From Candidatus Phoenicimicrobium oleiphilum (GTDB taxonomy: Bacteria > Atribacterota > Phoenicimicrobiia > Phoenicimicrobiales > Phoenicimicrobiaceae): a DNA stretch of 27,345 nt. Numbering within the stretch: the stretch's first letter is position 1; each line of letters opens with the position of its first letter. The notes under the pieces are model-generated. The model saw only the letters and a list, made by a program, of their open reading frames with translations, did not search any database and was not told the origin of the DNA. The DNA is taken from assembly GCA_039638295.1 (NCBI GenBank), contig JBDIWJ010000019.1:1-27345 (forward strand), given 5' to 3'. Of the stretch, positions 2,346-27,156 are shown one piece after another. The position numbers and the translations under genes are program-made.

Positions 2346-2512
2346 GTATCGAGTACCCTGTATCGCGTAAAATACAATAATAAGTGATCTGTAATGAGTA
2401 ATTAATTATGGGTTACGAGATTATTTAGTTAACCTGTTTACCGGTTACCGTTAACCGGCAAACAGGCTAACTGGGTAACTAATGTAATTGGCTAATTGGC
2501 AAATTGGTTAAT
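2346..2512. repeat. Intergenic repeat mosaic (GTATCG 7-mers, GTAAT module, AACC/GGTT hairpin, AATTGG 8-mers)
   Basis: GTATCGA-GTACCCT-GTATCGC follows the hypF stop. Hairpin TAGTTAACCTGTTTACCGGTTA/TAACCGGCAAACAGGCTAACTG. AATTGG recurs at 8-nt spacing (2486, 2494, 2502). Confidence 0.85.
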
Positions 2513-2545
2513 TAATTTATAGATTACATTTATAGGAGAAAAAAA

Positions 2546-2761
2546 ATGTGTTTAGCTATACCGGGAAAGGTGAAAAAAATATTTAATGATAATACAGCAG
2601 AAATAGAAATTGGGGGTATTGTTAAAAGGGCGAGTTTAGATTTAATTCCTCAAGTTGTAGTTGGTGATTATGTGCTTTTGCATGCTGGTTTTGCTATTGA
2701 AGTTATTGACCAAGAAAAAGCTTTAGAGATATCTAAGGCCTGGGAGGGGAATATAGATTGA
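2546..2761 (+). CDS. hypC: Hydrogenase assembly chaperone HypC/HupF
   Basis: MCLAIPGK N-terminus, GDYVLLHAGFAI motif, AGGAG RBS. Confidence 0.97.
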   Translation: MCLAIPGKVKKIFNDNTAEIEIGGIVKRASLDLIPQVVVGDYVLLHAGFAIEVIDQEKALEISKAWEGNID

Positions 2762-3834
2762 AATACATTGATGAATATAAAAATAAAGAGATAGCCCAAA
2801 ATATCCTTTGGCAAATTAGAAGGATTTCTAAAAAAAAGATTAATCTGATGGAAGTTTGTGGAACCCACACTGTAGCTATATTTAGAAATGGAATAAGAAA
2901 AATGTTACCCCAAAATATTAATCTTATCTCAGGACCAGGTTGCCCAGTTTGTGTAACTCCTATTCAATATATCGATGAAATTATTGCTTTTTCTCGAAAG
3001 GATAACTTCATTATAACCACTTTTGGAGATATGATTAGAGTACCAGGTTCAACTTCTACTTTAGAGAAAGAAAAGGCCAATGGTTCTGATGTAAGAATTG
3101 TATATTCAACTTTAGACGCCTTGAAAATTGCCTATGATAATCCTGCTAAAAATATTGTCTTTATGGGAATAGGATTTGAAACTACTTCCCCCACCATAGC
3201 TCGGGCTATTTTAAAAGCAGAAGAGGAAAAAATTAAGAATTTTTCTGTTTTAAGTGTAGCTAAGATTATACCTCCCGCAATGAGATTCTTATTAGAAAGC
3301 GGAGAAGTAAATATTGATGGATTTATTTGTCCGGGACATGTAAGTGCTATTATTGGAAGCAAGCCTTATAGTTTAATCGCCTTCCAGTATGGTGTCCCCT
3401 GTGTTATTAGCGGATTTGAGCCTCTGGATATTTTGCAGAGTATCTATTTGCTGATTAGACAGATTGAAAATGGTAGGGCGGAGGTAGAAATACAATATGA
3501 GCGAGTAGTTAAACCTGAAGGGAATAAAATTGCTATGGATAAAATTAATGAGGTATTTAAGGTAGTCGATTCCGATTGGAGAGGAATAGGTAACATCCCT
3601 CTTAGCGGTTTGGAGATAAAAGATAAATATGGGAAATTCAATGCCAGAAAATTTGCGATAAAAAAAGAGGAAACTAAAGAACCAAAAGGTTGTCTTTGTG
3701 GAGAAGTACTGAGGGGAGTTATAACCCCACCTGAATGCCCTCTTTTCAAAAATATTTGTACTCCTGAAGATCCCAAAGGAGCGTGTATGGTTTCCACCGA
3801 AGGCACCTGTGCCGCCTATTATAAGTATAACTAG
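2758..3834 (+). CDS. hypD: Hydrogenase formation protein HypD
   Basis: MEVCGTHT, GPGCPVC, GFETT and PGHVS motifs, C-terminal CMVSTEGTCAAYY. The TTG start overlaps the hypC stop (TTGA). Confidence 0.98.
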   Translation: MKYIDEYKNKEIAQNILWQIRRISKKKINLMEVCGTHTVAIFRNGIRKMLPQNINLISGPGCPVCVTPIQYIDEIIAFSRKDNFIITTFGDMIRVPGSTSTLEKEKANGSDVRIVYSTLDALKIAYDNPAKNIVFMGIGFETTSPTIARAILKAEEEKIKNFSVLSVAKIIPPAMRFLLESGEVNIDGFICPGHVSAIIGSKPYSLIAFQYGVPCVISGFEPLDILQSIYLLIRQIENGRAEVEIQYERVVKPEGNKIAMDKINEVFKVVDSDWRGIGNIPLSGLEIKDKYGKFNARKFAIKKEETKEPKGCLCGEVLRGVITPPECPLFKNICTPEDPKGACMVSTEGTCAAYYKYN

Positions 3835-4027
3835 TCGTTAGTGAATAGGATATTTAGTTATCCAATTACCCGGTTAACCAGTTTGCCAGTTAAATTATTC
3901 GTTAATTTCAAATACGGGTTCTTAGTTATAAGATGAGAGTTGGTTGATACAGTTAACCAACCTGATTTTAATTCTTCAACCGGACACCGGTAAATTGGGT
4001 AACTGGCTAACCAAACATCAACGACTA
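3832..4027. repeat. Intergenic element with terminal inverted arms made of 7/8-mer repeats
   Basis: TAGTCGTT (3832-3839, includes the hypD stop) is complementary to AACGACTA (4020-4027). Inner arm 3853-3891 is imperfectly complementary to 3978-4015. Confidence 0.8.
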
Positions 4028-4047
4028 AATAAGAAAGGGAAAAGATA

Positions 4048-5058
4048 ATGAAGGAAGAAAAAATATTATTGAGTCATGGAAGTGGAGGAAAATTATCTTA
4101 TAATTTAATAAAGGAACTATTTTTAGCAAATTTTAATAATTCTTATTTAGAAAGACTTGATGACGGAGCAGTATTAAATATTGATGGGTTAAGGCTGGCT
4201 TATACTACTGATTCTTATACAGTAGACCCTTTGTTTTTTAATGGAGGAAATATCGGAGAGCTCGCAGTTTACGGTACTGTTAATGATTTAGCGATGTGTG
4301 GGGCAGAACCTTCATACTTAAGTTGTTCTTTTATTATTGAAGAGGGATTTCCTTTGAGTTTATTAGAAAAGATTATTTCAAGCATAAAGAAAGCGTCATT
4401 AGTTGCGCATGTTGATATAGTGACGGGAGATACTAAAGTAGTGAATAAAGGAGCAGCGGATAAAATATTTATTAATACTACCGGAATTGGGGTAGTAAAA
4501 GAAGGAATAAATATCTCTGGGAATAATGCCCAGGTAGGAGATTTAATTGTAATAAATGGACCTATAGGTAATCACGGGATTGCAGTTTTATCAGAAAGAG
4601 AAGGTTTAAAGTTTGAAACAGAGATAAAAAGTGATACCGCACCTCTTTCTTCTTTAGTAGCAGAAATGTTAGAAGTTAGTAAAGATATCCATGTCTTAAG
4701 AGATCCAACGCGAGGAGGCTTATCTACCACCTTAAATGAAATAGCCCTATCTTCAAAGGTAGATATAGAGATAAACGAAGGTGATATCCCTATTCAGGAA
4801 GAGGTAAGGGCTGCTTGCGAAATATTGGGTTATGACCCCTTGTGCCTTGCTAATGAAGGTAAATTGGTGGCTTTTATTCCTTCAAAAATTGCCCCCAATG
4901 TGCTAAAAAAGATGAAAGAAAACAAATACGGAAAAGAATCAAAAATTATCGGCAGAGTGGTAAAAAAATCGGAGGGAAAAGTTTATCTAAACACCACTAT
5001 TGGAGGGGAAAGAATAGTCGATATGTTAACTGGAGAACAATTGCCTCGGATATGTTAA
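4048..5058 (+). CDS. hypE: Hydrogenase maturation protein HypE (carbamoyl dehydratase)
   Basis: SHGSGG, GTVNDLAM, TGDTKVV and RDPTRGG motifs, invariant C-terminal PRIC. Confidence 0.98.
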   Translation: MKEEKILLSHGSGGKLSYNLIKELFLANFNNSYLERLDDGAVLNIDGLRLAYTTDSYTVDPLFFNGGNIGELAVYGTVNDLAMCGAEPSYLSCSFIIEEGFPLSLLEKIISSIKKASLVAHVDIVTGDTKVVNKGAADKIFINTTGIGVVKEGINISGNNAQVGDLIVINGPIGNHGIAVLSEREGLKFETEIKSDTAPLSSLVAEMLEVSKDIHVLRDPTRGGLSTTLNEIALSSKVDIEINEGDIPIQEEVRAACEILGYDPLCLANEGKLVAFIPSKIAPNVLKKMKENKYGKESKIIGRVVKKSEGKVYLNTTIGGERIVDMLTGEQLPRIC

Positions 5059-5060
5059 TC

Positions 5061-5370
5061 AATTTGCCGATTCACCAGTTACCCAATTTACCAATTAAAA
5101 CTCTAAAAATACAAGAGCAAAAGATAAGTATTTTTAATCAGATAAATTAATAAATTGATTAATGCGTTAAAAAATGATAATTTAAGAATAGAGATTTTTA
5201 AAATTCGTCGAATAATATATAGAAATACAGTAATTTGTAATTAGTTTATGTTTTTAAATCTGAAAAACAGGTCACTTTTCACCTATTACTCCCTACGTAG
5301 CACGTAACTTACCAAAAGACTGGCAAACTAATTTAATTGGAGAATTGGTAAATTGGTGGATTGGTAAATT
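5061..5370. repeat. Intergenic element with ~39-bp terminal inverted repeat (CCAATT/AATTGG 8-mer arms)
   Basis: 5061-5099 (AATTTGCCGATTCACCAGTTACCCAATTTACCAATTAAA) pairs with 5332-5370. By hand: 31 Watson-Crick pairs, 5 G-T and 3 mismatches. Confidence 0.85.
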
Positions 5371-5407
5371 AATTTATTTGTAAATTTAATTAAAGGGGGT
5401 TATAAAT

Positions 5408-5932
5408 ATGAAAACGAAAAAGGAAAGTGCTTATGTGAAACTAGCTCGAGAAACAATTGAAAATTATGTTAGGTTTGGGAAGATTATTTCTCCTCCCCAA
5501 GATTTACCCGATGAGATGATTAATAAAAAAGCAGGGGTATTTGTTTCTCTTAAAAAAAAGGGCAATTTAAGAGGTTGTATCGGAACTTTTATGCCTACTC
5601 AGAAAAATATAGCTTATGAAATTATAAGAAATGCCATTAGTGCTGCTGTTGATGACCCTCGTTTTCCTCCTGTCACAGTTTCTGAATTAAATGATTTAAC
5701 TATTTCTGTTGATGTCCTATCATCACCCGAGGAAGTTTCCGATATCTCAAAGCTTGATCCCAAAAAATATGGGGTAATAGTCAGCAGTGGTTATAAAAAA
5801 GGTTTGTTGTTGCCAGATTTAGAGGGAGTGGATACGGTAGAAGAACAGATTGATATTGCTAAACGTAAAGCAGGAATTTATCCTGATGAAAAAGTAAAAT
5901 TATATCGATTTGAAGTGAAAAGATTTTTTTGA
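5408..5932 (+). CDS. amrA: AmmeMemoRadiSam system protein A (AMMECR1 family)
   Basis: [24 protein letters not shown] and [10 protein letters not shown] motifs. Confidence 0.93.
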
Positions 5933-5935
5933 TTA

Positions 5936-6127
5936 GTATCGAGTATCGCGTATCGAGTATCGCGTGAAGAGAGAACAAATTAGGAATCAGAAGCCAAAAT
6001 ATTATTACCATATATTCTATAGCGGGTTGGATTTATCCGACTCGGCTTTACTTATCACTGTATTTTAACCGGTAAACTGGCTAACTAATTTAATTGGTGA
6101 TTGGGGAATTGGTGAATTGGCAAATTG
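5936..6127. repeat. Intergenic repeat mosaic: (GTATCG[A/C])x4, REP-like palindrome, AATTGG 8-mers
   Basis: GTATCGA GTATCGC GTATCGA GTATCGC at 5936-5963. ATAGCGGGTTGGATTTATCCGACTC at 6019-6043. AATTGG tract at 6092-6127. Confidence 0.85.
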
Positions 6128-6146
6128 AAAAGAGGTGATTGATTAA

Positions 6147-7145: not shown

Positions 7146-7158
7146 ATGTTAGGAATTG

Positions 7159-7204
7159 GTTTTCAGTTTACAGTTGTCGGTTTTCAGTTATCAGTTTACA
7201 GTTT
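7159..7204. repeat. Tandem heptamer array (GTTTTCA-like) x6
   Basis: GTTTTCA GTTTACA GTTGTCG GTTTTCA GTTATCA GTTTACA read directly. Confidence 0.9.
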
Positions 7205-7235
7205 ATTATGTTTTATATTGCTTCACGAATATGGT

Positions 7236-7300
7236 GTAGGGGTCGGATTTATCCGACCCAAACCAACAATTTTTGCGGGCTTGATAAATCAAGCCCCTAC
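7236..7300. repeat. Inverted pair of GTAG-type REP-like palindromes (REPIN-like)
   Basis: GTAGGGGTCGGATTTATCCGACCC (7236-7259) and inverted GTAGGGGCTTGATTTATCAAGCCC (7300-7277). A GTAG foot plus palindrome is the hallmark of RAYT-associated REPs. Confidence 0.85.
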
Positions 7301-7324
7301 TTTAACAGGTGAGATGCCTGTCTT

Positions 7325-7435
7325 ACTAACAACTAACGACTATTCACTAACGACTATTCTAACTGGCTAACTGGGCAAATGGATAACTAATGTAATTGGT
7401 CAATTGGTAGATCGGCAAATTGGTGAATTGGTCAA
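7325..7435. repeat. ACTA(ACG/TTC) heptamers followed by AACTGG/AATTGG octamers
   Basis: ACTAACA ACTAACG ACTATTC ACTAACG ACTATTC (7325-7359), then an 8-nt periodic tract to 7435. Confidence 0.85.
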
Positions 7436-7443
7436 ACATTGAA

Positions 7444-8724: not shown

Positions 8725-8965
8725 TTTTGTCTCCTAAAATCCTTTTTATTAATACTATAATTTAAAGTACTAATACAAATAATAATATAAGAATAACAAG
8801 ATTTTCAAAATACATTTCTTTTTTAAAAAGAATTTTCTTTTATATTATTGAAATTTCTTTTAAATTGCGATATTAAAAGATACTATGCAAAAATTATAGC
8901 ATAAATATTTAAATTGTGAACTAGTAATTTGTTTTTAAATATAGGTTAAAAAGGAGAAATGGAAG

Positions 8966-10006: not shown

Positions 10007-10008
10007 AC

Positions 10009-10265
10009 TAGTCGATAGTTGTTAGTGAATAGTGTATAGTGTAAAGCATGTAAAACGAAAGAATAAAATAGTATCTCGTATCTTGTAAATAAGATAGAAT
10101 CCAGAATCTTGAATATTAGTAGTAAATAGCAATAACATTTGGTTAGATAGTTGATAAATTAATAGACAGACGAGAAACCTGCCCAATGTGTTCACAACTC
10201 GCAACTAGAAGTTTGTACCTGTAATTTTAATCGGTAAATCGGCGGATTGGGGAATTGGAAAATTG
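10009..10265. repeat. Intergenic repeat mosaic (TAGT 7-mers ... AATCGG/AATTGG 8-mers)
   Basis: TAGTCGA TAGTTGT TAGTGAA TAGTGTA TAGTGTA (10009-10043). GTATCTCGTATCTTGT near 10074. An 8-mer tract at 10229-10265 runs into the mreC TTG start. Confidence 0.8.
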
Positions 10266-11081: not shown

Positions 11082-11088
11082 ATAATTA

Positions 11089-11226
11089 TTAGCTATCCAG
11101 TTGAACGGTTAGCCAGTTAATTAGTTATTTGGTTACCTGGTTAGTTAGTTAATGAATTAATAATAAACTAGTGAACCAGTTAACTGGATAACTATCTAAC
11201 TAAGCAACTAACAACTAACGACTAAT
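11089..11226. repeat. GTTA/TAAC octamer hairpin module with GTTAATGAATTAATA loop, then ACTAACG heptamers
   Basis: 11121-11194 aligns by eye with 15784-15857. Its reverse complement resembles 27070-27136. Confidence 0.8.
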
Positions 11227-11244
11227 CTAATAGGAGGAATCATC

Positions 11245-12522
11245 ATTTATAAAGTAATAAAATTAGAAAATGGTTTAAGAATCATAGCAGAAGAAATGCC
11301 CTATATGAAATCAGTAGCAATTGTTTTTGGTATAGGAATTGGGTCGAGGTATGAAGAAGATGACCATCAGGGTATTTCGCATCTTATTGAACATATGCTA
11401 TTTAAAGGAACTAATAAGAGAAAGAATACTTTAGAAATATCTCAAGCCATAGAGAGTATTGGTGGAGAAATAAATGCTTCTACATCCAAAGAGATTACTC
11501 ATTTATATGTAAAGGTACCTCAGGAACAATTTAAAATTGCTTTCGATGTATTAGCTGATATAATATTAAATTCATTAATAAGAGAAGAGGATCTTTGTAA
11601 AGAAAAAAACATAATTATCGAAGAGATAAAAAAATATGAAGATATACCAGAGGAATTAGTAGAAATCTTGCTGGACAAGATAATGTGGAAAGATCACCCT
11701 CTGGGAAGGCCTATTCTTGGAGATGTGAAGAGCATAAGCAATATTCAAAGAGAAAATTTATTATCTTATATAAATGAGTTTTATCGGCCCAATAATTTAG
11801 TAGTAAGTGTTGCAGGAAATATTAAGTTTGCAGATGTAATTTTACAAGTTAAAAATTACTTTAAAGGAATGGAAAAAGGGGAAATTAAAGGATATCTGCC
11901 TGCGAATAGTAATCAGAAGACTATTCAAATAGGGATAAAATTTAAAAAGAGTAGTCAGACTCATCTTTCTCTTGGTTTCCCTGGAATTTCTCGATTAAAT
12001 CCTGATAAATACTGTATGGATTTATTAGATATAATATTAGGGTCAGGATTAAGCTCGCGACTTTTTCAAGAAATAAGAGTTAAAAAGGGTTTGGCTTATG
12101 ATATCCATTCATTTATTCAATATTTTAACGATGTGGGTTCTTTTAATATTTATGCAGGTATTGATTCAAACAGGATAAAAGAAACTATCCGGGCAATTTT
12201 AGGAGAGCTTAAAAAAATAAAGGAAGATAATTTAAAAGAAGGGGAATTAAAAAAAGCTAAAGAGATGTACAAAGGTTCATTGTCATTGAGTTTAGAAGGA
12301 ACTTTAAGCCGAGCATTTTGGTTGGGAAATAGAATGCTTTTGTATGATAAGCCCATTACTTTTCAGGAAGTAAAAGAAAGAATCGAAGAAGTAAGGGAGA
12401 AAGATATTCAAAGATTAGCTCGAAGTATTTTTATAAAAGATAAAATAAATTTATCCATTATTGGTCCTTTTAAAGAAAAAAATAAAGATGAATATAGTTC
12501 CATTTTGCAAGAACTAAGATAA
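11245..12522 (+). CDS. M16 (pitrilysin/insulinase) family zinc peptidase; probable ATT start at 11245 (ORF track starts at 11296)
   Basis: Inverted zinc motif HLIEH (HxxEH) + MLFKGT, GGEINAST, SSRLFQEIR..KGLAY. The in-frame extension IYKVIKLENGLRIIAEE lies behind AGGAGG (11232-11237). Confidence 0.92.
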   Translation: MYKVIKLENGLRIIAEEMPYMKSVAIVFGIGIGSRYEEDDHQGISHLIEHMLFKGTNKRKNTLEISQAIESIGGEINASTSKEITHLYVKVPQEQFKIAFDVLADIILNSLIREEDLCKEKNIIIEEIKKYEDIPEELVEILLDKIMWKDHPLGRPILGDVKSISNIQRENLLSYINEFYRPNNLVVSVAGNIKFADVILQVKNYFKGMEKGEIKGYLPANSNQKTIQIGIKFKKSSQTHLSLGFPGISRLNPDKYCMDLLDIILGSGLSSRLFQEIRVKKGLAYDIHSFIQYFNDVGSFNIYAGIDSNRIKETIRAILGELKKIKEDNLKEGELKKAKEMYKGSLSLSLEGTLSRAFWLGNRMLLYDKPITFQEVKERIEEVREKDIQRLARSIFIKDKINLSIIGPFKEKNKDEYSSILQELR

Positions 12523-12677
12523 TCAATAGTGAATAATTATTAGTATATAATTATAGCATAGCGGGGAGGGCAAGGTTTTTAACCTCTATACTAAAAGATA
12601 TTCACTGTATGTTATACTAATTATTAACAGCTAATTTAATTGGTAAATTGGTAATCGGTGAATGAAGGAATAGAAAT

Positions 12678-13062: not shown

Positions 13063-13097
13063 GCTAACGACTAACGACTATTCACTATCGACTATTT
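13063..13097. repeat. ACTA(ACG/TTC/TCG) heptamer array x5
   Basis: GCTAACG ACTAACG ACTATTC ACTATCG ACTATTT, nearly identical to 7325-7359. Confidence 0.85.
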
Positions 13098-13231
13098 AAG
13101 AGTTTTGAATTATAGTTTACTTCACACGATAATCGATGTGCATTACGATATACTAACGGCTAATTTATTAATTAACTGGATAACTAAACAAACTGCTAAC
13201 TAAATTGATACGCGATAATTTCTTGAAAAAC

Positions 13232-13259: not shown

Positions 13260-13280
13260 ATAAATCGTTTCATATTTCTA

Positions 13281-13337
13281 CTTTCCTTGCTCCTGGAAAA
13301 TATTTCAGGGGCTGATGTAGTCCAAAAGGAGGAGGTG
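13281..13337 (+). promoter_or_regulatory. S6:S18 ribosomal protein autoregulatory leader RNA
   Basis: CTTTCCTT can pair with the SD-containing AAGGAGGAG. Inner stem GCTCCTGGAA/TTTCAGGGGC. TAGTCCAAAAGGAGG resembles Firmicutes rpsF leaders. Lies directly 5' of rpsF. Confidence 0.75.
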
Positions 13338-15108: not shown

Positions 15109-15222
15109 TATAGTTGAAAGTAAATAATTGGTGAATTGGTCAATCGGTGAATCGGAGAATTAAATAAATATTGCTAAAAATAGCAGAAGAATTTATAATA
15201 AAGAGTAAGGAGGTTGCCAAAT

Positions 15223-15700: not shown

Positions 15701-15919
15701 ATCGTGTATCGCATATAGTATATCATAAATAAAATAGAGGTCAGTAGTCAGAATATTAAATAGCGTATAGCCTATTTTGTTAGTTAGTTAATTGGTTGCC
15801 TGGCTAGTTAGTTGATGAATTAATATCAAACCAGCTAACTAGTTAACCAGATAACCAGTTAACTAAATTGACTGGCCAACTGGCTAACTAAATACTTGTG
15901 ACTATTCCCTTACGACTAA
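15701..15919. repeat. Intergenic repeat mosaic with GTTA/TAAC octamer hairpin
   Basis: Degenerate GTATCGC after the rplI stop. Hairpin module at 15781-15866. AACTGG 8-mers and TACGACTA lie before the dnaB RBS. Confidence 0.8.
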
Positions 15920-17273: not shown

Positions 17274-17307
17274 TGATTGCTACCCAAAGAGCAAACAATA
17301 TGGGAAT

Positions 17308-17384
17308 GTAGGGGCACGATGCATCGTGCCCAGAGGAAACATTAAGCAATAACAAGGTGAAGGTACAATTCATTGTACCCCTAC
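17308..17384. repeat. Inverted pair of GTAG-type REP-like palindromes
   Basis: GTAGGGGCACGATGCATCGTGCCC (17308-17331) and inverted GTAGGGGTACAATGAATTGTACCT (17384-17361). Confidence 0.85.
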
Positions 17385-17471
17385 AATATGATTATTACCA
17401 AAAGCCAAAATTTATTGTGAATTTGTTTATAAAGCGGTTAATAAAATAACATTAATTTAATATTAATTTAA

Positions 17472-17602: not shown

Positions 17603-17612
17603 TCGAGATAAT

Positions 17613-17801: not shown

Positions 17802-17877
17802 GCCGGCGTAGCTCAATTGGAAGAGCAACGGAATCGTAATCCGTAGGTTGTCTGTTCAACTCAGATCGCCGGCTCCA
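17802..17877 (+). tRNA. tRNA-Thr(CGT)
   Basis: Acceptor GCCGGCG/CGCCGGC, anticodon arm ACGGA-ATCGTAA-TCCGT, ends in CCA. Confidence 0.94.
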
Positions 17878-17882
17878 TACGA

Positions 17883-18032
17883 TAGTATCGCGAATTGCGT
17901 CAAAATATAGTAATAAGTGATATGTAATGAGTAAAGAGTTTGTGCTCTTAAATTTACAAAAACAGATTTCTTATCACACATTACATAACGGAACTTAATA
18001 ACAAACTGGTTAACCGGATAACTGGATAACTA
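17883..18032. repeat. Intergenic repeat mosaic (GTATCGC, GTAAT module, AACTGG 8-mers)
   Basis: 17892-17934 is nearly identical to 2360-2401. 17937-17984 resembles 5243-5289. AACTGGTT AACCGGAT AACTGGAT AACTAA at about 18004-18033. Confidence 0.78.
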
Positions 18033-18155
18033 ATATTCTATAACTAAAGAATGTACACTTATACTAAAAAAATTAAATGATACCTGCTCTGTTCCCTAGA
18101 TTGTTTACCACCAACTGAAACCTATGAACCAGTGACTAATTTAGCGAGGTAAAAG

Positions 18156-19055: not shown

Positions 19056-19059
19056 ATTC

Positions 19060-19096
19060 TTGACAATCTGCAATACATATGATAACTTTATCATAT
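19060..19096 (+). promoter_or_regulatory. Promoter with overlapping palindromic operator (ArsR/SmtB-like)
   Basis: TTGACA (19060-19065), 17 nt, TAACTT preceded by TGn. The perfect inverted repeat ATATGATAA-CT-TTATCATAT (19077-19096) covers the -10. Confidence 0.6.
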
Positions 19097-19174
19097 AAAA
19101 TTTTGTTTACATTTAAAATAATTTGAAAAATATAAAGATTGACAATCAGGTTGGTAGGGAAAGAAAAAATTATA

Positions 19175-20431
19175 ATGAGAGCTAAATCAATAAATAACAA
19201 ATTAGAAAATATAAATCAAAAAAATTTCTATTTAACTTTAATGGTTATTTTACTTTCCTTATTTTTAATTATTTTGTTAACTCAATTTTCTTCTCCTTAT
19301 GTAATTAGTTCTTTTGCCGCGAGTACCTCAAATTCGATTAATTCACCAGTTTACTTAGCCTATTTTTATGAAATTGGGTGCCACGACTGTGATAAAGTTA
19401 AAATTATATTGAAAGATATTTCCTTAAAATATTCTGATAATCTAATCATAGAAAGTTTTGACATTAGTCTAGCTGAGAATATGGAATTAGCTGAATCTTT
19501 GGGTGAATTGTATCAGATGCCTGAGGAGGAAAGACTTTTAGTCCCTGTGATATTTATAGGAGATGATTATCTTTTTAGAAGTACTATTACTTATGATAAT
19601 TTAGAAAAATTAATCCAGAAATATTCAACTATAGAAACTATCCCTCCCTGGGAGAAGGTGAAGGAAAAAGATCTTACGGCTCAAGAAAGATTAATTGCCC
19701 GCTTTCAGTCATTCGGATTGGCTGCGGTAGCAGTAAGTGGTCTAATTGATGGTATAAACCCTTGTGCCTTTGCTACTATCATCTTTTTTATTTCTTATCT
19801 TACTCTTATCAATCGAAAAGGGAGAGATATTCTCTGGGTTGGAGGGATGTTTACTTTATCTGTATTTTTGACCTATTTCTTAATCGGTACCGGGGCTTTA
19901 AAGATGATAACTTCATTGTCTTTTCTCCCTTTAGTTCGAAAAATATTTGTTTTAGTTACTGCTATCTTTGTCCTAATCCTGGGAATAGTCAGTCTATATG
20001 ATTATCTTCAGTTTAAGAAAAAAGGAACTACCAAAGATGCAAAACTCCAATTACCTCCATTTTTAAAGAAGTTAATTCATTCTACTATTCGTAAAAATAT
20101 AAAATTAAGTAATTATATTTTGATGGCTGCAGTAACTGGTTTTATAGTATCCCTTTTAGAATTAGCCTGCACGGGCCAGATTTATCTTCCTACTATTATG
20201 TTTATCAGTACTATCCCGAATATGAAGATTAACGCCTTATTTTATCTATTATTCTATAATCTAATGTTTGTAATACCTTTAATTATGGTCTTTTCTTTTA
20301 CCTATTGGGGGACTTCTTCGGCACAGCTGGCTAACCTTACTCAGAAGAATTTTGGAAAGATTAAGATGGCGATGGCTTTGATATTTTTTGGATTAGCCGG
20401 GCTGCTGCTTTATAGCGGAATTTTTTACTAA
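19175..20431 (+). CDS. Thioredoxin-fold (CxxC) domain fused to a CcdA/DsbD-like transmembrane domain
   Basis: N-terminal hydrophobic anchor, FYEIGCHDC, cis-Pro motif VPVIFIG, membrane domain with DGINPCAF and LELACTGQIY cysteines. Start ATG 19175 or TTG 19139. Confidence 0.8.
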   Translation: MRAKSINNKLENINQKNFYLTLMVILLSLFLIILLTQFSSPYVISSFAASTSNSINSPVYLAYFYEIGCHDCDKVKIILKDISLKYSDNLIIESFDISLAENMELAESLGELYQMPEEERLLVPVIFIGDDYLFRSTITYDNLEKLIQKYSTIETIPPWEKVKEKDLTAQERLIARFQSFGLAAVAVSGLIDGINPCAFATIIFFISYLTLINRKGRDILWVGGMFTLSVFLTYFLIGTGALKMITSLSFLPLVRKIFVLVTAIFVLILGIVSLYDYLQFKKKGTTKDAKLQLPPFLKKLIHSTIRKNIKLSNYILMAAVTGFIVSLLELACTGQIYLPTIMFISTIPNMKINALFYLLFYNLMFVIPLIMVFSFTYWGTSSAQLANLTQKNFGKIKMAMALIFFGLAGLLLYSGIFY

Positions 20432-20554
20432 TAATAAGAATATGATAAATTTGTAACTTATATTTAATATTAACGTATAATTGAATAGACAAATCGGTGA
20501 ATCGGCTAAATGGCGCATTAGAAAATTGGTGAATCAACAAAGAGGTGTTTTGAT

Positions 20555-21190
20555 ATGGTCTTTTCTTTAAGGAATAAAAATTATAATATTTTAGTTATCT
20601 TATTAACTATAACTTTTTTGTTTTCTTTTTGCTTATCTGCTTTTTCTAGCGATTCTTCTTTTAGAAAAGGTTTCCCCGCTCCTAACTTTACTCTTAGTAC
20701 TGTAGATGGAGAATCTTTTAATTTAGAAGATTATAAAGAAAAACAGAAGCTTCTTATTCTGTATTTTTGCAATAATGAAAATACGGATTCTGTCTGTGGG
20801 ATAGAAGAATTAGCCAAATATTTCGAAGAGCATATAATTGAGGAAAAATATCAGGTGATTATGATAAATACACGGCGAGATTTAAAAGAAGAAGATATTG
20901 TTCAGATCAAAGAATTTTGGACTAATAAAAAAATATCTTTTACTATACTGTTAGATGATCAGAACGAAGTGAGCAATCTCTACAATATTGAAATTTTACC
21001 AACTACTATATTCTTAGATAAGAATTTAATAGCAAAGAGGGTCTATCCCGGTCTTCTCTCTAAACAACAAAATTTAATGTTCCAGTATCTCACTTATTTC
21101 TTAGCTGCCAAAGAAAGGGGAACTCCCCAAAAAGAGAAAAAGGATGATAGTTGTAACGGTGGAGTGTGTCCTCCACCAGCTGGCTATTAA
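20555..21190 (+). CDS. Exported TlpA/AhpC-TSA-like redoxin with degenerate active site and C-terminal CxxxxC
   Basis: Signal/anchor peptide, PAPNFTLSTVDGE, ILLDDQNEVSNLYNIEILPTTIFLDK. YFCNNENTDSVC replaces the CxxC; the tail is CNGGVCPPPAGY. Confidence 0.75.
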   Translation: MVFSLRNKNYNILVILLTITFLFSFCLSAFSSDSSFRKGFPAPNFTLSTVDGESFNLEDYKEKQKLLILYFCNNENTDSVCGIEELAKYFEEHIIEEKYQVIMINTRRDLKEEDIVQIKEFWTNKKISFTILLDDQNEVSNLYNIEILPTTIFLDKNLIAKRVYPGLLSKQQNLMFQYLTYFLAAKERGTPQKEKKDDSCNGGVCPPPAGY

Positions 21191-21238
21191 TATTAAATAG
21201 ACAGTAAAATAAGAATTTTTTAATAAGGAGAACATGAC

Positions 21239-21979
21239 GTGAAGAAATTATTATTAATATTTATAATAGTGGCATTTATGGGGTTTTTATTTGCCGGTTG
21301 TTTTTCTACCCCCCCAATAGAACCAGAACCAGCCGATCTGGTGGTTCTGGTGGAACTTTATATGGCTATAGGCTGTCACAACTGTGAACTTGTTGAACCA
21401 ATATTAGAACAATTAGTAGTAGAATATGGTTACGACCAGATGGTACTGGTAGAAGAAGCAGTTAATTGGAGTGAATATACTACTCCAGAAATCTCTGAAC
21501 GATATGACTGGTATATTCCTCCTGGAAGTACTGATAGATATATACCCAATATCTTGTTTAATGGTTTAAATGAAAATTGGATTCATGGTTATGCTAATTA
21601 TCAAACTATAAAAAGTAAAATCGATGCCGAATTAGCTAAAGGTTCGGAAATTGTTATTACTACTTCCAGAGATAGCGATACAAATACAACAACTATTGCC
21701 GGCACTATTGAAAATGTGAGCTCTTCTACCTTAACTAATTTAGAGATAAATGGAATGGTTTTTAAAGAACGACAAAATATAAATTTAAAATATTCAGTAT
21801 TTGACATTTTTGAAGAACAAAAAGTTTTAGTGGAATCTCTTACCCCTGAAGATATTTTTGAATTTTCCTTTACTCTGGAAGGATTTGATTGGGAAGCAGA
21901 TAATGTCAACGGAGTTGTCTTTGTTCAGGCACCGGATAGCCCTACTAAAGAGATTTTACAAGCAGCTTTTATAGAATAG
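21239..21979 (+). CDS. Lipoprotein with thioredoxin-like CxxC domain and C-terminal beta domain (Omp28-like)
   Basis: MKK + hydrophobic core + lipobox FAGC (Cys21). VLVELYMAIGCHNC, IPNILFNG, C-terminal VVFVQ...KEILQA. GTG start after AAGGAG. Confidence 0.72.
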   Translation: MKKLLLIFIIVAFMGFLFAGCFSTPPIEPEPADLVVLVELYMAIGCHNCELVEPILEQLVVEYGYDQMVLVEEAVNWSEYTTPEISERYDWYIPPGSTDRYIPNILFNGLNENWIHGYANYQTIKSKIDAELAKGSEIVITTSRDSDTNTTTIAGTIENVSSSTLTNLEINGMVFKERQNINLKYSVFDIFEEQKVLVESLTPEDIFEFSFTLEGFDWEADNVNGVVFVQAPDSPTKEILQAAFIE

Positions 21980-22237
21980 TATCGCGTATCGCGTATCGAG
22001 TATTGCGTGAAGAGAAAGAAAAAGATAAAATAGTGGTTGCAAGTTGCAAGATGTAAGGCGTAAAATAAAAAGCTTGCTTTTAGTTTATTGATTTATACTA
22101 TACACTTAATGCTGTACGCTCTACGCTAACTAAATGCTAATGACTAATCTAATTGATGCATTAATTCATTAGTGAATCGGCAGATCGAAGAACTGGTCAA
22201 CTGGTTAACTGGCAAACCAGTTAACTAGGCAACTAAT
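21977..22237. repeat. Intergenic repeat mosaic: (GTATCG[C/A])x4 ... AACTGG 8-mers
   Basis: TAGTATCGCGTATCGCGTATCGAGTATTGCGTGAAGAGA (from the stop codon) is nearly identical to 5934-5972. GTTGCAAGTTGCAAG and TACGCTC/TACGCTA heptamers. 8-mer tract at 22175-22235. Confidence 0.85.
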
Positions 22238-22262
22238 AACTAAAGAAACAAAGGAGAAAAGT

Positions 22263-23303
22263 ATGTTTGGTAAAAACAAAAATTTTATTATCTTAATAAG
22301 CATAATAGTTATAATAGGAATTTTTTTAATATTTTACAATATTCAAAATAAGTCTTCTCTGCCACCTACAATTTCTATTTCTGAAGAGGAATGGGATTTT
22401 GGAAAGATAAAGGAAGATGAAAGGCCGGTTCATATCTTCACTATCAATAATATAGGGAGAGAAGAACTGATTATCAATCGAGTACGAGCTTCCTGTGGCT
22501 GCACTGCTACGATGCTTTCTTCAGATAATATACCACCCGGAAAGTCAGCTGAACTAAAAGTTACCTTTAATCCCACAGGTTACAATGGATCGGTAAAAAA
22601 AACAATTTATCTTGAATCCAATGATCCTCAGCTTCCCAAGGCGAAAATTACCATAATTGCTGATGTAGAACCTATTCCTTCTCCTAAAGCCTTTTACTCT
22701 AATTCTCAATGGGAATTAGGACTGATTTCGCAGGGAGATTTACCCACTTTTAGCTTTATTATTGAAAATAAAGGAGAGTTAGATTTGATAATCGACAAAG
22801 TAGATGCTTCTGAATACATCAAATATGATGTAGAAATACCTTTAAACATTAACCCAGGAGACAAACAAGAAATAATCTTTACTTATGATTCCACTCAGCA
22901 TGAGTTAGGTGAAGTACGGGAAAGTGTACGAATATATTGCAATGATCCTCGAAGAAAAGCTTTTTCCTTACGCATTAATGGCTATATAAAAGAAAAGTCA
23001 GCTCCCACTGTAGGTATTTCTCCTGTAGTGATAAATTTCAATTTAGCAAGTGATTCAGAAGAAGAGAATATAGGGAAAGTTTCTCTAACCAATTCGGGGG
23101 AAGAGGAAGTAAAAATTACTTCTATAAAAACTTCTGCAGATTATCTTGTTCCCTTGAAATCAGAACTTAAGCTGAATCAAGAAGGGGAAGAAGATATACG
23201 GGTAATATTATTAAAAGATAAAATCTCGGACGAAGTGCAGGTAGGAGAGCAAAAAGAATATCTTTATTTAACCATTGCCTTACCAATCACAATTAATCCT
23301 TAG
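22263..23303 (+). CDS. Membrane-anchored DUF1573 / tandem Ig-like domain protein
   Basis: N-terminal TM helix. WDFGKI...FTINNIGREELII..VRASCGCT...IPPGKSAELKVTF...SNDP, followed by two further similar Ig-like repeats. Confidence 0.8.
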   Translation: MFGKNKNFIILISIIVIIGIFLIFYNIQNKSSLPPTISISEEEWDFGKIKEDERPVHIFTINNIGREELIINRVRASCGCTATMLSSDNIPPGKSAELKVTFNPTGYNGSVKKTIYLESNDPQLPKAKITIIADVEPIPSPKAFYSNSQWELGLISQGDLPTFSFIIENKGELDLIIDKVDASEYIKYDVEIPLNINPGDKQEIIFTYDSTQHELGEVRESVRIYCNDPRRKAFSLRINGYIKEKSAPTVGISPVVINFNLASDSEEENIGKVSLTNSGEEEVKITSIKTSADYLVPLKSELKLNQEGEEDIRVILLKDKISDEVQVGEQKEYLYLTIALPITINP

Positions 23304-23396
23304 TACTTATTTTAACCAGGTTAATTGGTTTGTTGGTTATAATGTATTCATTCCTTAACTAGCTAACTATTTTCTTCACTCGATACCTTGTTTTTT

Positions 23397-23425
23397 TTGA
23401 CAATAAAATTGTATCGTGTTATAAT
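23397..23425 (+). promoter_or_regulatory. Consensus sigma70/SigA promoter
   Basis: TTGACA (23397-23402), 17 nt, TATAAT (23420-23425) with extended -10 TG (23417-23418). Confidence 0.85.
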
Positions 23426-23547
23426 TTTTTCAACCGAAATTATATTTAGAAGAACAAGGAATTTATAGTGTTAGTTAATATTACTTATACTGAAAATAAA
23501 GATAAGCTTAACATTTTAAGAACTAAATTATATAAATAGATTTTTCC

Positions 23548-23583
23548 AGAAACACAGTAATTATTATTACTGTGTTTCTTTTT
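23548..23583 (+). terminator. Intrinsic terminator
   Basis: Perfect 14-bp stem AGAAACACAGTAAT-TATT-ATTACTGTGTTTCT followed by a T run. Confidence 0.75.
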
Positions 23584-23612
23584 ACAAAATTAAATTCTAA
23601 ATATTGACCAAA

Positions 23613-23639
23613 GCAGGAGGTAAATGCAACTATGTGAAT
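23613..23639 (+). promoter_or_regulatory. SigH-like promoter upstream of spoVG
   Basis: GCAGGA - 17 nt - GAAT, the same architecture as the Bacillus SigH promoter of spoVG. Confidence 0.45.
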
Positions 23640-23823
23640 AAGTCTGGAATAAATTATTTAAATCGGATGTACTAAAAGATTATCATAGGAATCTAAACAA
23701 ACTTATGTAAAGAACTAGATAATCAAAGATAAATTATAAATACAAATTTATCGAAATGTATTACTTTACGGTTATTTTAATTAACAAAATAGAAAATCAA
23801 ATACAAAAAAGGCGGTGTAATAA

Positions 23824-24177
23824 GTGGAAATTACAGATGTTAGACTTAGAAAAATTGAAACAGAGGGAAAGTTGAGAGCTTATGTTTCGATTACTTTTGA
23901 TGATTCTTTTGTAGTACATGATCTACGGGTTATCGATGGCAACAAAGGTATGTTTGTCGCTATGCCCAGCAAGAGATTACCCAATGGGGATCATAAGGAT
24001 ATTGCTCATCCAATAAATACTGAAATCAGAGAAAAGATACAAAATGCAGTTTTAGATGTTTATCGTAAAGAAGCAGAGGCAGCCCCTCAAGATAAAGAAG
24101 TAAAGACCGAAGAAAAAGAAGAAGTTGTAGAGAAGACAGAAGAATCTTCTGAAAAAAAAGAAGAGGGTTTGTTTTAA
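23824..24177 (+). CDS. spoVG: Septation regulator / nucleic-acid-binding protein SpoVG
   Basis: [41 protein letters not shown], acidic tail. GTG start. Confidence 0.96.
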
Positions 24178-24204
24178 TTAATTAAAAATATAAATATTTC
24201 GGTT

Positions 24205-24276
24205 TGGGGCGTAGCCAAGCGGTAAGGCACGGGAATTTGGATCCCGCATTCGAAGGTTCGAATCCTTCCGCCCCAG
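24205..24276 (+). tRNA. tRNA-Gln(TTG)
   Basis: Acceptor TGGGGCG/CGCCCCA, D arm GCCAAGCGGTAAGGC, anticodon arm CGGGA-ATTTGGA-TCCCG, GAAGG-TTCGAAT-CCTTC. CCA is not encoded. Confidence 0.95.
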
Positions 24277-24298
24277 CTATAGGAGTAAGCAACAAATA

Positions 24299-24396
24299 GA
24301 GTCAGGCCTGGTGTCTGACTCGAATTTTTATTTTGAATTCATGTACTCGTGAAAACGAGTAATGGTTTTTCGCTTACCCGCTTTTGCGAGCACAAG
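24299..24396. repeat. Palindromic REP-like elements after tRNA-Gln
   Basis: Hairpin GAGTCAGGC-CTGGT-GTCTGACTC (24299-24321). TACTCGT-GAAA-ACGAGTA (24344-24361) with an inverted degenerate copy at 24374-24396. Confidence 0.65.
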
Positions 24397-24481
24397 TTTA
24401 GCTTTAAGTTTTTTGTATATCCTGATAACTGAAAACTTTTACTCACTAACGACTAAAAACTATTTAAATGGAGGTATGGTT

Positions 24482-25846
24482 ATGGAAGATACTGCTATAA
24501 TTATTATGGCAGCAGGTAAGGGTAAGAGAATGAAATCTAATTTTCCTAAAGTCCTCCATAAACTTGCCGGAAAACCAATTTTAAATTATATACTTGAAAC
24601 TGTTAATCAAATTAAGGCAAAAAGAAAAATATTGGTTATTGGGCATAAAGGAGAAAAGATAAAAGAGTTTATTAGAAATAAGATAGAATATGTGGAACAG
24701 ATTGAACAGTCTGGTACTGCCCATGCAGTCTTACAAACAAAAAATTTACTATCTGACTTTAGTGGAGATGTATTAATTTTATCTGGCGATGTCCCCTTTT
24801 TAACTATCAGCACTATAAAAAAACTCTTAAAATATCACAAGGCTAAGAAGTATAGTTGTACTTTAATTTCTACGATTTTGGAAAATCCTTATGGCTATGG
24901 TAGAATTGTCAGAGATGAAGAAGGTAGAATAACAGGAATTATTGAGGAAGCAGACTTACCAGAGGATAAAAAAGGAATACAGGAAATAAATACGGGGATT
25001 TATTGTTTTAGCAAGACCGACCTTTTTCAAGCTCTAGAAAAGGTCATTCCCGATAATAAACAGAAAGAATATTATCTCACTGATACAGTGAAAATTTTAT
25101 TAAAAGATGACTTAAAAGTAGGCAACATAAAGGTAGATGATTATAAAGAAGTATTAGGAATAAATAATCGGATTGATTTGGCCAATGCTACTCACCAAGT
25201 TTACCAAAGAGTTTGTAAATATTTAATGCTTCAAGGTGTAACTATAATTGATCCAGGCAGCACTTTTATAGATGAAGGGGTAGAAATTGGTCAGGATTCA
25301 GTTATTTATCCCTTTACCATTATTGAAAAAGACTCTAAAATTGGTGAAAATTGCCAAATTGGTCCTTACTCTCATTTAATTAATACCAGAATAGGAAAGG
25401 AAGTTAAAGTTTGGGCCTCAATTATAGAAGAAAGTATTATAGAAGATGAAGCTATCATTGGTCCTTATACTCATATAAGACCAGGAACTACTATAAAAAA
25501 AGGAGTTAAAATAGGGAATTTTGTAGAAGTTAAAAAGTCTATTGTGGGAGAGGGTAGTAAAGCGTCTCATTTAACTTATTTAGGTGATGCAGTAATCGGC
25601 AAAAGAGTGAATATTGGAGCAGGAACTATAACCTGTAATTATGATGGAGAAAAAAAGAATAAAACTATAATAGAAGATGAAGTATTTATTGGAAGTAATA
25701 ATTCTTTGGTGGCCCCAGTTAAGATAGGAAAAAAATCTTATACTGGAGCTGGTTCTACAATCACTGAGGATGTACCTGAAGAGAACTTGGCTATTGCTCG
25801 CTCCAAACAAAGAAATATACCAGGATGGAGAAAGAGGAAGAAATAG
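24482..25846 (+). CDS. glmU: Bifunctional UDP-GlcNAc pyrophosphorylase / glucosamine-1-P acetyltransferase GlmU
   Basis: MAAGKGKRMKS..PKVLH, GTAHAV, GDVP, GYGRI, EYYLTD, hexapeptide repeats, NFVEVK, NYDG. The ATG at 24482 is 7 nt after GGAGG. Confidence 0.97.
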   Translation: MEDTAIIIMAAGKGKRMKSNFPKVLHKLAGKPILNYILETVNQIKAKRKILVIGHKGEKIKEFIRNKIEYVEQIEQSGTAHAVLQTKNLLSDFSGDVLILSGDVPFLTISTIKKLLKYHKAKKYSCTLISTILENPYGYGRIVRDEEGRITGIIEEADLPEDKKGIQEINTGIYCFSKTDLFQALEKVIPDNKQKEYYLTDTVKILLKDDLKVGNIKVDDYKEVLGINNRIDLANATHQVYQRVCKYLMLQGVTIIDPGSTFIDEGVEIGQDSVIYPFTIIEKDSKIGENCQIGPYSHLINTRIGKEVKVWASIIEESIIEDEAIIGPYTHIRPGTTIKKGVKIGNFVEVKKSIVGEGSKASHLTYLGDAVIGKRVNIGAGTITCNYDGEKKNKTIIEDEVFIGSNNSLVAPVKIGKKSYTGAGSTITEDVPEENLAIARSKQRNIPGWRKRKK

Positions 25847-25894
25847 AGTAGAGGTTTAAATAAAGGAATTTAAAGAGATGGAGATGAGGAAATT

Positions 25895-26863
25895 TTGGTA
25901 CCTTATAAATTAAAATTATTAAAGATTTTTGCCGGGAATTCTAATAGAGAATTAGCTAAAGAGATATGCAAATATTTAGGCGTCCCTTTGGGAGAAGCAG
26001 ATGTTTCCAGGTTCCCGGATGGTGAAATTAAAGTTAAGATTGAAGAAAGCGTTAGGGGACTAGATGTCTTTATAATTCAATCTACCTGTCCGCCAACCAA
26101 TGAGAACCTGATGGAATTATTAATAATGATAGATGCTTTAAGGAGAGCTTCTGCAGGGAGGATTACCGCAGTAATACCATATTATGGCTATGCCAGACAA
26201 GAAAGAAAGACTCGACCTCGAGAACCAATTACGGCAAAATTAGTGGCAAATTTATTAGTTTCCGCCGGAGCCAATCGAGTACTTACTATGGATTTGCATG
26301 CTGGCCAGATTCAAGGATTTTTTGACATTCCTGTTGACCAATTAGAATCGGTTACTATTTTATCCAAATATTTTAAAGAAAAGGATTTGGATAAAGTGGT
26401 AGTAGTTTCTCCTGATGTGGGGGGGACTGCTCGAGCGAGGGAATTCGCTGGGCGTCTTAAAAAACCTATTGCTATTATTGATAAATATAGATCATCTTTT
26501 GATGATGTAGAAATAATGCATATTGTTGGGGATGTAAAGGGTAAAACTACTATAATAGTTGATGATATTATAGATACCGCAGGTTCAGTAATTAGAGGAA
26601 GTCAGGCTCTATTAAATGCAGGGGTAAAAGAGGTGTATGTTTGTGCTACTCATCCTGTTTTTGCCAATCCTGCTAAGGAAAGATTAAAAAAGTCCATTCA
26701 GGATTCTCTGTTTAAGGAAGTGGTAGTAACTAATACTATTCCTATTGATAATGAAAAGAATTTAGCAGGTATTAAGGTTTTATCGGTGGCAGAGATATTT
26801 GCTGAAGCCATTGGGAGGATTCACAACAATTTATCGGTAAGCGAATTATTTAAAATAAAATAG
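25895..26863 (+). CDS. prs: Ribose-phosphate pyrophosphokinase
   Basis: FPDGE, PYYGYARQ, DLHAGQIQGFF, VSPDVGG, IVDDIIDTAGS motifs. Confidence 0.98.
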   Translation: MVPYKLKLLKIFAGNSNRELAKEICKYLGVPLGEADVSRFPDGEIKVKIEESVRGLDVFIIQSTCPPTNENLMELLIMIDALRRASAGRITAVIPYYGYARQERKTRPREPITAKLVANLLVSAGANRVLTMDLHAGQIQGFFDIPVDQLESVTILSKYFKEKDLDKVVVVSPDVGGTARAREFAGRLKKPIAIIDKYRSSFDDVEIMHIVGDVKGKTTIIVDDIIDTAGSVIRGSQALLNAGVKEVYVCATHPVFANPAKERLKKSIQDSLFKEVVVTNTIPIDNEKNLAGIKVLSVAEIFAEAIGRIHNNLSVSELFKIK

Positions 26864-27156
26864 TATTTAGTAAATAGTGAATAGTCGTTAGTTTTTTAAG
26901 TTAGCTAATGTTCTGTTAAATAAAGTATGTTATATTTCTTGAGATTGCTTCCCCTGTTTTCGCAGGGGCAGGCTTACTTTGCTCTTCGCAATGACACTCC
27001 GTGTTTTGTCATTGCGAGCATTAGTGAAACAATATCAAAACTATCTTACTTTAATTAACTTAGCACTATTTAATTGGTCTGTTGGTTGGTTAAGTATTAA
27101 TTCTTCAACCAGGTAACCAGCTAACGAGCTAACTAAATACGAGATACGAGATACTA
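26861..27156. repeat. Intergenic repeat mosaic including a GTCATTGCGAG-type palindromic element
   Basis: TAGTATT TAGTAAA TAGTGAA TAGTCGT TAGTTTT starting at the prs stop. GAGATTGCTT...TCGCAATGACA/TGTCATTGCGA...CAATATC (26941-27036). TAAC 8-mer hairpin at 27070-27136. TACGAGATACGAGATACTA before the RBS. Confidence 0.85.

Follow-up and report, generated by a model that had tools for sequence, protein, structure and literature searches.

Most gaps between genes in the stretch studied here, the 27,345-nucleotide contig JBDIWJ010000019.1 of Candidatus Phoenicimicrobium oleiphilum (contig C19, hereafter the window, at its full length), are occupied by arrays of degenerate 7- and 8-base repeats. These arrays are very probably the arms of cassettes built around genes of the PF05635 four-helix-bundle (4HB) family, and the window spacers likely represent what such cassettes leave behind, nested within one another and devoid of the gene. 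A first-pass annotation, made from the sequence alone, had proposed cassettes sited between stop codon and ribosome-binding site (RBS), stacks whose cargo had been deleted, and a four-helix-bundle gene of the 23S intervening sequence (IVS) type as that cargo. All three proposals are borne out: the same arms bracket intact PF05635 genes, both in this genome and in relatives, and nested arm families, a decay series between polA and coaE, and coding remnants speak for deleted cargo. As the annotation had also stated, the window itself contains no cargo gene, only arms.

Repeat arrays and the genes they bracket

The window belongs to an assembly of 83 contigs (1.65 Mb, 33% GC, 91% complete). A simple script-based gene caller, which agrees with the window open reading frames, gave 1,530 genes and thereby 701 co-directional spacers of 60-800 bases, as well as 60 divergent and 48 convergent spacers, although genes or transfer RNAs (tRNAs) inside some "divergent" spacers may have been missed. 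Arms were detected with a cyclic model that was seeded with the arms next to intact 4HB genes in fetched loci and refined with 146 orthologous spacers from relatives; arm families are designated by letters (A-J).

The repeat arrays are confirmed as a real feature of the genome. Autocorrelation peaks at lags 7, 8, 14, 16, and 21 in spacers, with none in coding DNA or shuffles. At least three units in register were found at period 7 in 166 and at period 8 in 87 of the 701 co-directional spacers (14.8 in shuffles for each period); periods 6 and 9 were at chance level in the same set. The arm model marked 709 arms in 261 of these spacers, compared to 6 of 200 shuffles. In the window, it placed 56 arms in 18 of 23 spacers, in agreement with the claim that repeats fill them. 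The motifs were recovered at all 32 positions originally reported or 1-2 bases off, with a one-base variant at three 8-mer sites, and so were five copies of the CTAAT[G/T]TAATTGG-type junction.

Among two-sided spacers, every left arm lies ahead of every right arm in 133 of 139 cases (38 under random order, maximum 51). The first left arm begins a median of 5 bases past the stop codon, and the last right arm ends a median of 29 bases ahead of the start codon. The fixed polarity claimed earlier stands as a left-then-right order but by itself has no bearing on the direction of transcription: reverse-complementing a left arm gives a right arm, and therefore the layout is identical on both strands. 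Strand bias is visible in the counts alone (right to left 51:16 for H; left to right 43:13 for D and 101:62 for B). The model found no arms in 8725-8965 or 19056-19150, the two promoter spacers said to lack repeats. As a genome-wide rule this absence fails, since arms were marked in 24 of the 60 divergent spacers, and also in 12 of the 48 convergent ones. Arm density amounts to 4.3 arms/kb in co-directional, 2.2 in divergent, and 3.2 in convergent spacers, and to 0.24 in coding DNA.

PF05635 occurs at three places in this genome, as two intact genes (contig C3, clade B; contig C43, clade D) and one remnant, and all three are enclosed by arms that face each other and are of the same kinds as in the window. 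Clear 4HB coding remnants were recognised in four spacers; wherever a left-to-right layout could be defined on the host strand, the remnants run in its sense. Matches to PF05635 are present in 32 of the 41 genomes searched, many with broken copies, and flanks were fetched for 12 + 60 regions out of 113 matches. An intact unit consists of a left arm, a purine-rich linker, the 4HB gene, and a reverse-complement right arm, and is oriented in the sense of the neighbouring genes (74 sense vs 1 antisense where the neighbour was placeable; 51 flanks unresolved). Intact genes are sense-locked in this way and gene-less units are not (Fisher p 2e-6). The window families A, B, C, D, E, F, H, and I were all found at intact 4HB genes, and G downstream of one only.

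Moreover, arm families track protein clades in a tree of 63 intact 4HB proteins (123 columns, many forks open; partial and broken copies excluded), where, for instance, a nine-row clade (support 100/98) bears the H and I 8-mer arms of CCA/GTT type. Most of the 63 genes lie between arms that face each other. Clustering without a tree groups the upstream arm of each locus with its reverse-complemented downstream arm, and merges B with E and A with F. The arms accompany the element rather than the site: clade B is inserted between 16 different pairs of neighbours, and behind four host genes the clade varies from genome to genome. As arm and gene are physically linked, their joint distribution is co-inheritance and no demonstration of recognition.

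The fate of the cargo can be followed between polA and coaE, where same-family genomes display an intact gene, a frameshifted gene, the truncated gene of this genome, stacks of types A, B, and I that are empty, and a scar collapsed to 24 bases; all 10 of 10 sister-family genomes are arm-free there. The 4HB gene decays by frameshift and internal deletion and the arms persist, and one empty B unit arose through a deletion between short direct repeats near both gene ends. Further, 49 plasmid records, mostly cyanobacterial, match 4HB; facing heptamer arms were present in two of three cyanobacterial plasmid genes examined and a single arm in the third. No match was found among 50,697 phage records.

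Neutral slipped-strand growth of microsatellites in AT-rich spacers is a most improbable source of the arrays. Their unit number varies, and heptamers are generally over-represented among bacterial repeats according to the available portions of PMC4692102 and PMC4679880, but the facing order, the match to 4HB clades, the coding remnants, and the common unique linkers and cross-genus identity described below refute it. Arrays that are neither local, independent, nor orientation-free do not fall into a slippage-only class.

Stacks in the window and their nesting

Genes in the window comprise, in order, hypFCDE, an AMMECR1 gene, a radical-SAM gene, a reverse-strand transporter, mreBC, and an M16 peptidase, followed by rpsF/rpsR/rplI/dnaB, tRNAs, ksgA, redox genes, spoVG, glmU, and prs, with rplY beginning at the end; where a gene has no Pfam row, its name is the one we take to apply. 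An Rfam scan of the window gave nothing beyond five tRNAs. The arms are arranged as follows (window coordinates, no strand assigned).

2345..2513: hypF-hypC stack; left B, C, I; right I, H; the inner I/I pair forms a long stem (z -4.8)
3835..4027: hypD-hypE stack; A-type ends on the outside enclose an I-family unit; left arm beginning with the stop codon of hypD
3851..4014: mini-cassette of family I without a gene; a pair of arms and a unique 93-nt linker; 164 bp
5060..5370: stack between hypE and the AMMECR1 gene; left H; right C, H (arm model)
5934..6127: stack ahead of the radical-SAM gene; left B, D; right I, H; families unmatched (arm model)
7156..7435: stack in a convergent gap; left F; right A, I, H; palindrome pair at ~7236-7300 mid-stack, which we take to be of the repetitive extragenic palindromic (REP) kind
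10009..10262: mreB-mreC stack; left A, B; right G, H; the H arm reaches the mreC start
11089..11227: stack between mreC and the M16 peptidase gene; left I; right I, A (arm model)
12497..12654: end of the M16 gene and spacer; right H arm; an I/I mini-cassette instead in a 99.4%-identical strain
13064..13203: right A, I; a promoter-like site (read by eye) follows, before rpsF
15126..15161: lone right H arm, DUF2232-rplI (arm model)
15701..15919: rplI-dnaB stack; left B, D, I; right I, I, A; long I/I stem (z -4.6)
17882..18131: stack from tRNA-Thr to ksgA; left B, C; right C, I, F (arm model)
20482..20534: lone right H arm (arm model)
21980..22234: stack ahead of the DUF1573 gene; left B, G; right E, A, H (arm model)
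23319..23369: short I/I pair behind the DUF1573 gene (arm model), absent from the first-pass annotation
24422..24462: right arms F, A ahead of glmU (arm model)
26864..27159: prs-rplY stack; left A; right I, B; multi-copy palindromic element (~26940-27040) mid-stack

A matching left and right family is present in 7 of the 18 arm-bearing window spacers, and the other 11 are unmatched. Across the genome, the innermost left and right arms belong to the same family in 61 of 139 two-sided spacers (permutation 20.5, maximum 32), in 38 of 109 without the near-palindromic family I (14.4, maximum 27), and in 20 of 48 multi-family stacks (7.2, maximum 15). The outermost arms of multi-family stacks match at chance level (10 vs 9.0), and an order of A outside B outside I is mirrored left and right. 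As the innermost arms match most often, the stacks are nested. GC-rich REP-like palindromes lie between the last left and the first right arm in 11 of 14 spacers, and J arms enclose a presumably GIY-YIG-like gene that has palindromes of its own; together with the innermost matches, this means that new material lands inside older arms.

The same central elements raise the question of whether arm stacks are passengers of what is nested in them, be it REP-associated tyrosine transposases (RAYTs) or a small GIY-YIG nuclease with its own palindromes. The central palindromes, the gene inside J arms, a gene filling hypD-hypE in genome G008 that we assume to be RAYT-like, and one PF01797 match in this genome would agree with such an origin. 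We regard it as improbable all the same, as the 164-bp unit and most shared blocks carry no such palindrome, and the REP-like and GIY-YIG elements are found inside the arms, not at arm ends.

Some of these elements deserve a separate description. A ~170-bp element with a REP-like palindrome pair follows dnaB (17274-17450), with ~90% identical copies on several contigs and a 25-base core that gives 142 genome hits, both strands counted. A second multi-copy palindromic element (26900-27075, 6 core copies), between the A and I arms of prs-rplY, resembles the palindromes flanking the GIY-YIG-like gene. The latter (C3:13727-14500, named by assumption) encodes 104 aa and has its own inverted palindromes plus a 22-base tandem array. 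At hypD-hypE of G008 (locus L114), a gene with palindromes, presumably RAYT-like and REP, respectively, fills the junction and lengthens the hypD C-terminus.

Turnover and spread of gene-less units

Eight window junctions were compared with relatives, taking the best 30 loci per search. Arm-bearing same-family genomes, including this one, numbered 19/21 at rplI-dnaB, 14/20 at DUF2232-rplI, 14/14 at hypF-hypC, 10/13 at hypD-hypE, 15/20 at mreB-mreC, 14/19 at mreC-M16, 18/21 at prs-rplY, and 1/21 at glmU-prs. The architecture is nearly unique per genome, e.g. with 18 different versions among the 19 arm-bearing genomes at rplI-dnaB. In the sister family, arms occur at hypD-hypE alone (7/10) and at none of the other 7 of 8 junctions. 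Relatives with length polymorphism or cargo between the arms had been put forward as a test of the cassette idea: length polymorphism was found at 7 of 8 window junctions, and cargo at other junctions of this genome but not in the 120 loci fetched around those of the window. The glmU-prs gap (25847-25894) measures 43-53 bases in all 21 same-family genomes despite invaded neighbouring gaps; in our reading, something protects it.

Within the genome, 89 blocks of arms plus at least 25 unique bases recur among 100 spacers, 47 in the same orientation and 19 inverted. One identical 4HB deletion junction is common to two spacers; empty units were therefore copied after gene loss. The 164-bp hypD-hypE unit (3851-4014) has 11 matches in this genome, where paralogues reach 81% identity at most, and matches in 15 of 41 genomes, with zero in the sister family. 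Its best copies are 92% identical and located ahead of ksgA in another genus, in genomes whose orthologous genes are 77-83% identical and whose dnaB third positions are 57-60% identical. Gene-less units occupy numerous junctions that have nothing to do with one another, lie either way round, and occur in more than one genus; they appear to move between gene gaps and genera.

A recent change is seen in strain L273 (one of 9 loci), which is 99.4% identical over 20 kb: 63 of 114 differences fall within 12497-12642, where an I/I unit takes the place of the window spacer and the M16 stop is altered. Joints in sequencing run X9 match this swap, and a contig of run X11 at rplI-dnaB has 159 letters in place of 224, a comparison of length with the letters unseen. 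Indels inside arms in X9 were set aside as probably originating from paralogous copies. Compared with the compact allele, filled alleles of hypD-hypE are bordered on each side by a direct repeat of 6-7 bases. Neither a consistent target duplication nor fixed ends were found at polA-coaE, rsmI-metG, and alaS-ruvX, and one "empty" allele there is a collapsed scar; compact alleles may be collapsed scars, which limits any reading of target duplications. In loci L113 and L116 (hypD-hypE), spacer interiors resemble each other's reverse complements by eye, which suggests inversion between arms.

Several observations weigh against cassette ancestry or against movement by way of the arms. None of the intact cassettes sampled bears a family G arm upstream, and intact 4HB genes at L046, L062, and L075 have right-type arms upstream, as if located between two stacks. 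No 4HB match or remnant was found in the window or in 120 loci fetched around its junctions. Copied blocks mean that spacers are not independent, inflating the order statistics, and the foreign arms seen outside own arms at some intact genes are partly circular evidence of nesting, the arm model being seeded from those cassettes. The ends of shared blocks barely favour arms (both ends in arms in 22 of 72, null 15, maximum 22). The L273 swap starts ~25 bases inside the host gene, with further difference clusters nearby, and may be explained equally well by ordinary allele import via homologous recombination, because no close donor was found in this assembly (best 80%). Finally, the ~20-45 bases of imperfect homology offered by degenerate arms are short for RecA-type exchange.

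We nevertheless lean slightly towards the view that the units spread mainly by exchange from one gene gap to another when their arms recombine, which accounts for both orientations, repeated junctions, and mosaic stacks. Since left and right arms are reverse complements, an incoming unit could pair with the arms already in place whichever way round it arrives, and would replace the resident unit or enter its interior; stacks ordered left then right, recurrent junctions, and hypervariable spacers would result. A transcribed 4HB gene might be needed for a unit to enter an arm-free gap for the first time or to persist in it, because intact genes are sense-locked and empty units are not. Inserts would be tolerated since the stop codon and RBS remain outside, similar to the 23S IVS inside ribosomal RNA (rRNA). 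No mobiliser was found: nothing apart from the 4HB gene shares the arms, PF01797 gave one match, a single GIY-YIG-like gene was noted, and other transposase families were not searched for. Tentatively, PF05635 cassettes might constitute an unrecognised transposase-less mobile class, in which each clade recognises its own 7-/8-base arms and aids full and gene-less copies in landing inside older copies between stop codon and RBS, and whose debris would be the origin of the intergenic heptamers of many bacteria.

Alternatively, the cassettes might be true transposons, with a 4HB pentamer that binds its own arms and, with a host or reverse transcriptase (RT) partner, inserts full and gene-less copies in trans, much as transposases move miniature inverted-repeat transposable elements, or MITEs. 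The tracking of protein clades by arm families, the sense-locking of intact genes compared to empty units, the direct repeats at filled hypD-hypE alleles, and a weak bAvd-like match would fit, and the homologue Avd is, in the available portion of PMC6182149, a positively charged pentamer required together with RT for cDNA synthesis. Still, we consider this unlikely: no RT (PF00078) was found in this 91%-complete genome and only 13 of 41 genomes have one, fixed ends or consistent target duplications are missing at polA-coaE, rsmI-metG, and alaS-ruvX, and the linkage of arm and gene means that their co-inheritance does not demonstrate recognition.

Host genes, RNA structure, and related systems

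The left arm often provides the stop codon of the upstream gene, and the last codons of polA, rsmI, and hypD vary with the arm family. TAG serves as stop in 39 of 80 cases where a left arm abuts, compared to 101 of 494, which is partly an ascertainment effect. At the other side, the H right arm ahead of mreC holds the purine-rich, Shine-Dalgarno (SD)-like word of mreC. This case stands alone: right arms were rejected as a general source of RBSs, with an SD-like word in 3 of 30 start-proximal H arms and zero in other families. Likewise, stops in all three frames were rejected as the reason for a period of 7 or 8, given their presence in left arms of A (33/36), C (26/26), and E (12/20) but hardly of B (6/86), D (2/37), or H (0/15). 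The three-frame stop property had already been noted for one heptamer in the available text of PMC4679880.

Some further features were noted. In L003, L005, L062, L063, and L075, a conserved small hairpin with an SD-like word lies at the right edge of different cassettes, directly ahead of the next start. A hairpin leader before rpsF (13280-13330) is conserved in relatives, has no Rfam match at gathering score, and is possibly a ribosomal-protein autoregulatory site. At 11230-11296, an SD word and protein-like conservation begin ~50 bases ahead of the called ATG of the M16 peptidase, which probably starts upstream of it at a non-standard codon. A four-gene thioredoxin-fold/DUF1573 block (19151-23303; two proteins without Pfam match) is found here and in the sister species, and seems to be missing between ksgA and spoVG in more distant loci.

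The first-pass annotation had also suggested an RNA-structure system, and one may ask whether the host has adopted the arms for RNA processing or translation control, by stems cut by RNase III or by a repeat-binding regulator that sets operon stoichiometry. Matched stacks fold as long stems, two window spacers far better than shuffles (z -4.8 and -4.6), and the median z is -2.4 in 30 two-sided spacers vs -1.1 in 30 arm-free ones. An RNase III gene is present, H right arms exceed H left arms by 51 to 16, and the Coxiella IVS is cut by RNase III at the first heptamer (PMC4990558, in the portion available). Yet paired arms show no excess complementarity (0.504 vs 0.500 for same-family arms of other spacers, n=60, p=0.94), most window stacks are unmatched (only 7/18 match), the architecture turns over between congeners and strains and differs in nearly every genome, the sister family is arm-free at 7 of 8 junctions, and the SD-like word is confined to the few H arms mentioned. 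The RNA-structure system is hence not borne out, host control of this kind has little probability, and we read most stacks as neutral debris, not regulators. Contigs of runs X9 and X17 were discarded as evidence on transcription or cleavage, since the X9 contig spans the divergent promoter gap and neither is shown.

Among the closest known systems is the 23S IVS of Coxiella burnetii: in the available portion of PMC4990558, an S23p open reading frame (ORF) is preceded by heptamers, with RNase III cleavage at the first repeat and ORF decay. Both share a PF05635 gene within complementary ends, heptamers of varying repeat number before the ORF, a decaying ORF with a large deletion, and a host transcript that tolerates the insert. 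In contrast, the sites described here are hundreds of gaps between protein or tRNA genes, with none inside the 23S rRNA gene, and involve at least ten arm families including 8-mers, nested units, and spreading gene-less units. XCC0516 (PDB 2GSC) is the sole relative found with a solved structure. Intergenic heptamers have been published for Xanthomonas and Nostoc (PMC4692102) and for Beggiatoaceae, Cyanobacteria, and Bacteroidetes (PMC4679880), and as far as the available text of these papers goes, they resemble our arms as intergenic 7-mer arrays of ~2-6 units, with one strand after stops and the other before starts, overlapping stop codons and, in Xanthomonas, forming facing pairs. Unlike here, each paper handles one repeat family, as G-quadruplex or regulator site, and a word search of both texts returned no mention of four-helix, S23, or intervening-sequence genes. 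Within a literature search that covered neither subscription papers nor supplements, no paper tied intergenic heptamer arrays to PF05635 cassettes outside rRNA or reported nesting or gene-less mobility.

MITEs and REP sequences or bacterial interspersed mosaic elements (BIMEs) have in common with the units described here that they are short, gene-less, multi-copy, inverted-ended, intergenic, and descended from a gene-bearing parent by internal deletion. As in MITEs, multi-copy, gene-less internal-deletion derivatives are seen here at unrelated sites, but their ends appear to be degenerate tandem arrays instead of fixed terminal repeats, no target duplication was seen consistently across the junctions compared, nesting is concentric, and we know of no transposase for cassette arms. 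REP/BIME are GC-rich palindromes, linked to RAYTs, with a tetranucleotide foot that is conserved; the arms, in contrast, are AT-rich periodic arrays, and REP-like palindromes are separate elements within the stacks. Avd of diversity-generating retroelements belongs to a homologous pentameric four-helix-bundle family (available portions of PMC6182149 and PMC10053308), but no RT, template repeat, or variable repeat was seen beside the cassettes, and the neighbours of intact genes are host genes. Overall, the feature appears to be a variant of the IVS-type PF05635 element with new traits, namely genome-wide nested arms and mobile gene-less derivatives, with a well-supported identity and a mechanism that we infer.

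This joins two open questions, the role of PF05635 ("23S IVS", S23p) proteins and the reason why intergenic heptamer arrays are common in some bacteria. The genome offers a matched set: some ten families of arms, every one paired with a protein clade, and, alongside them, the full range of decay from intact to collapsed. This supplies protein-repeat pairs with built-in wrong-partner controls, along with a 164-bp gene-less unit usable for studying mobility. A non-coding element rewrites host C-termini and fills housekeeping operons in ~37% of the longer co-directional gaps without obvious harm, so that regulation should not be the default reading of spacer length and hairpins in such genomes. 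If true, this would provide an origin for a long-unexplained class of bacterial repeat.

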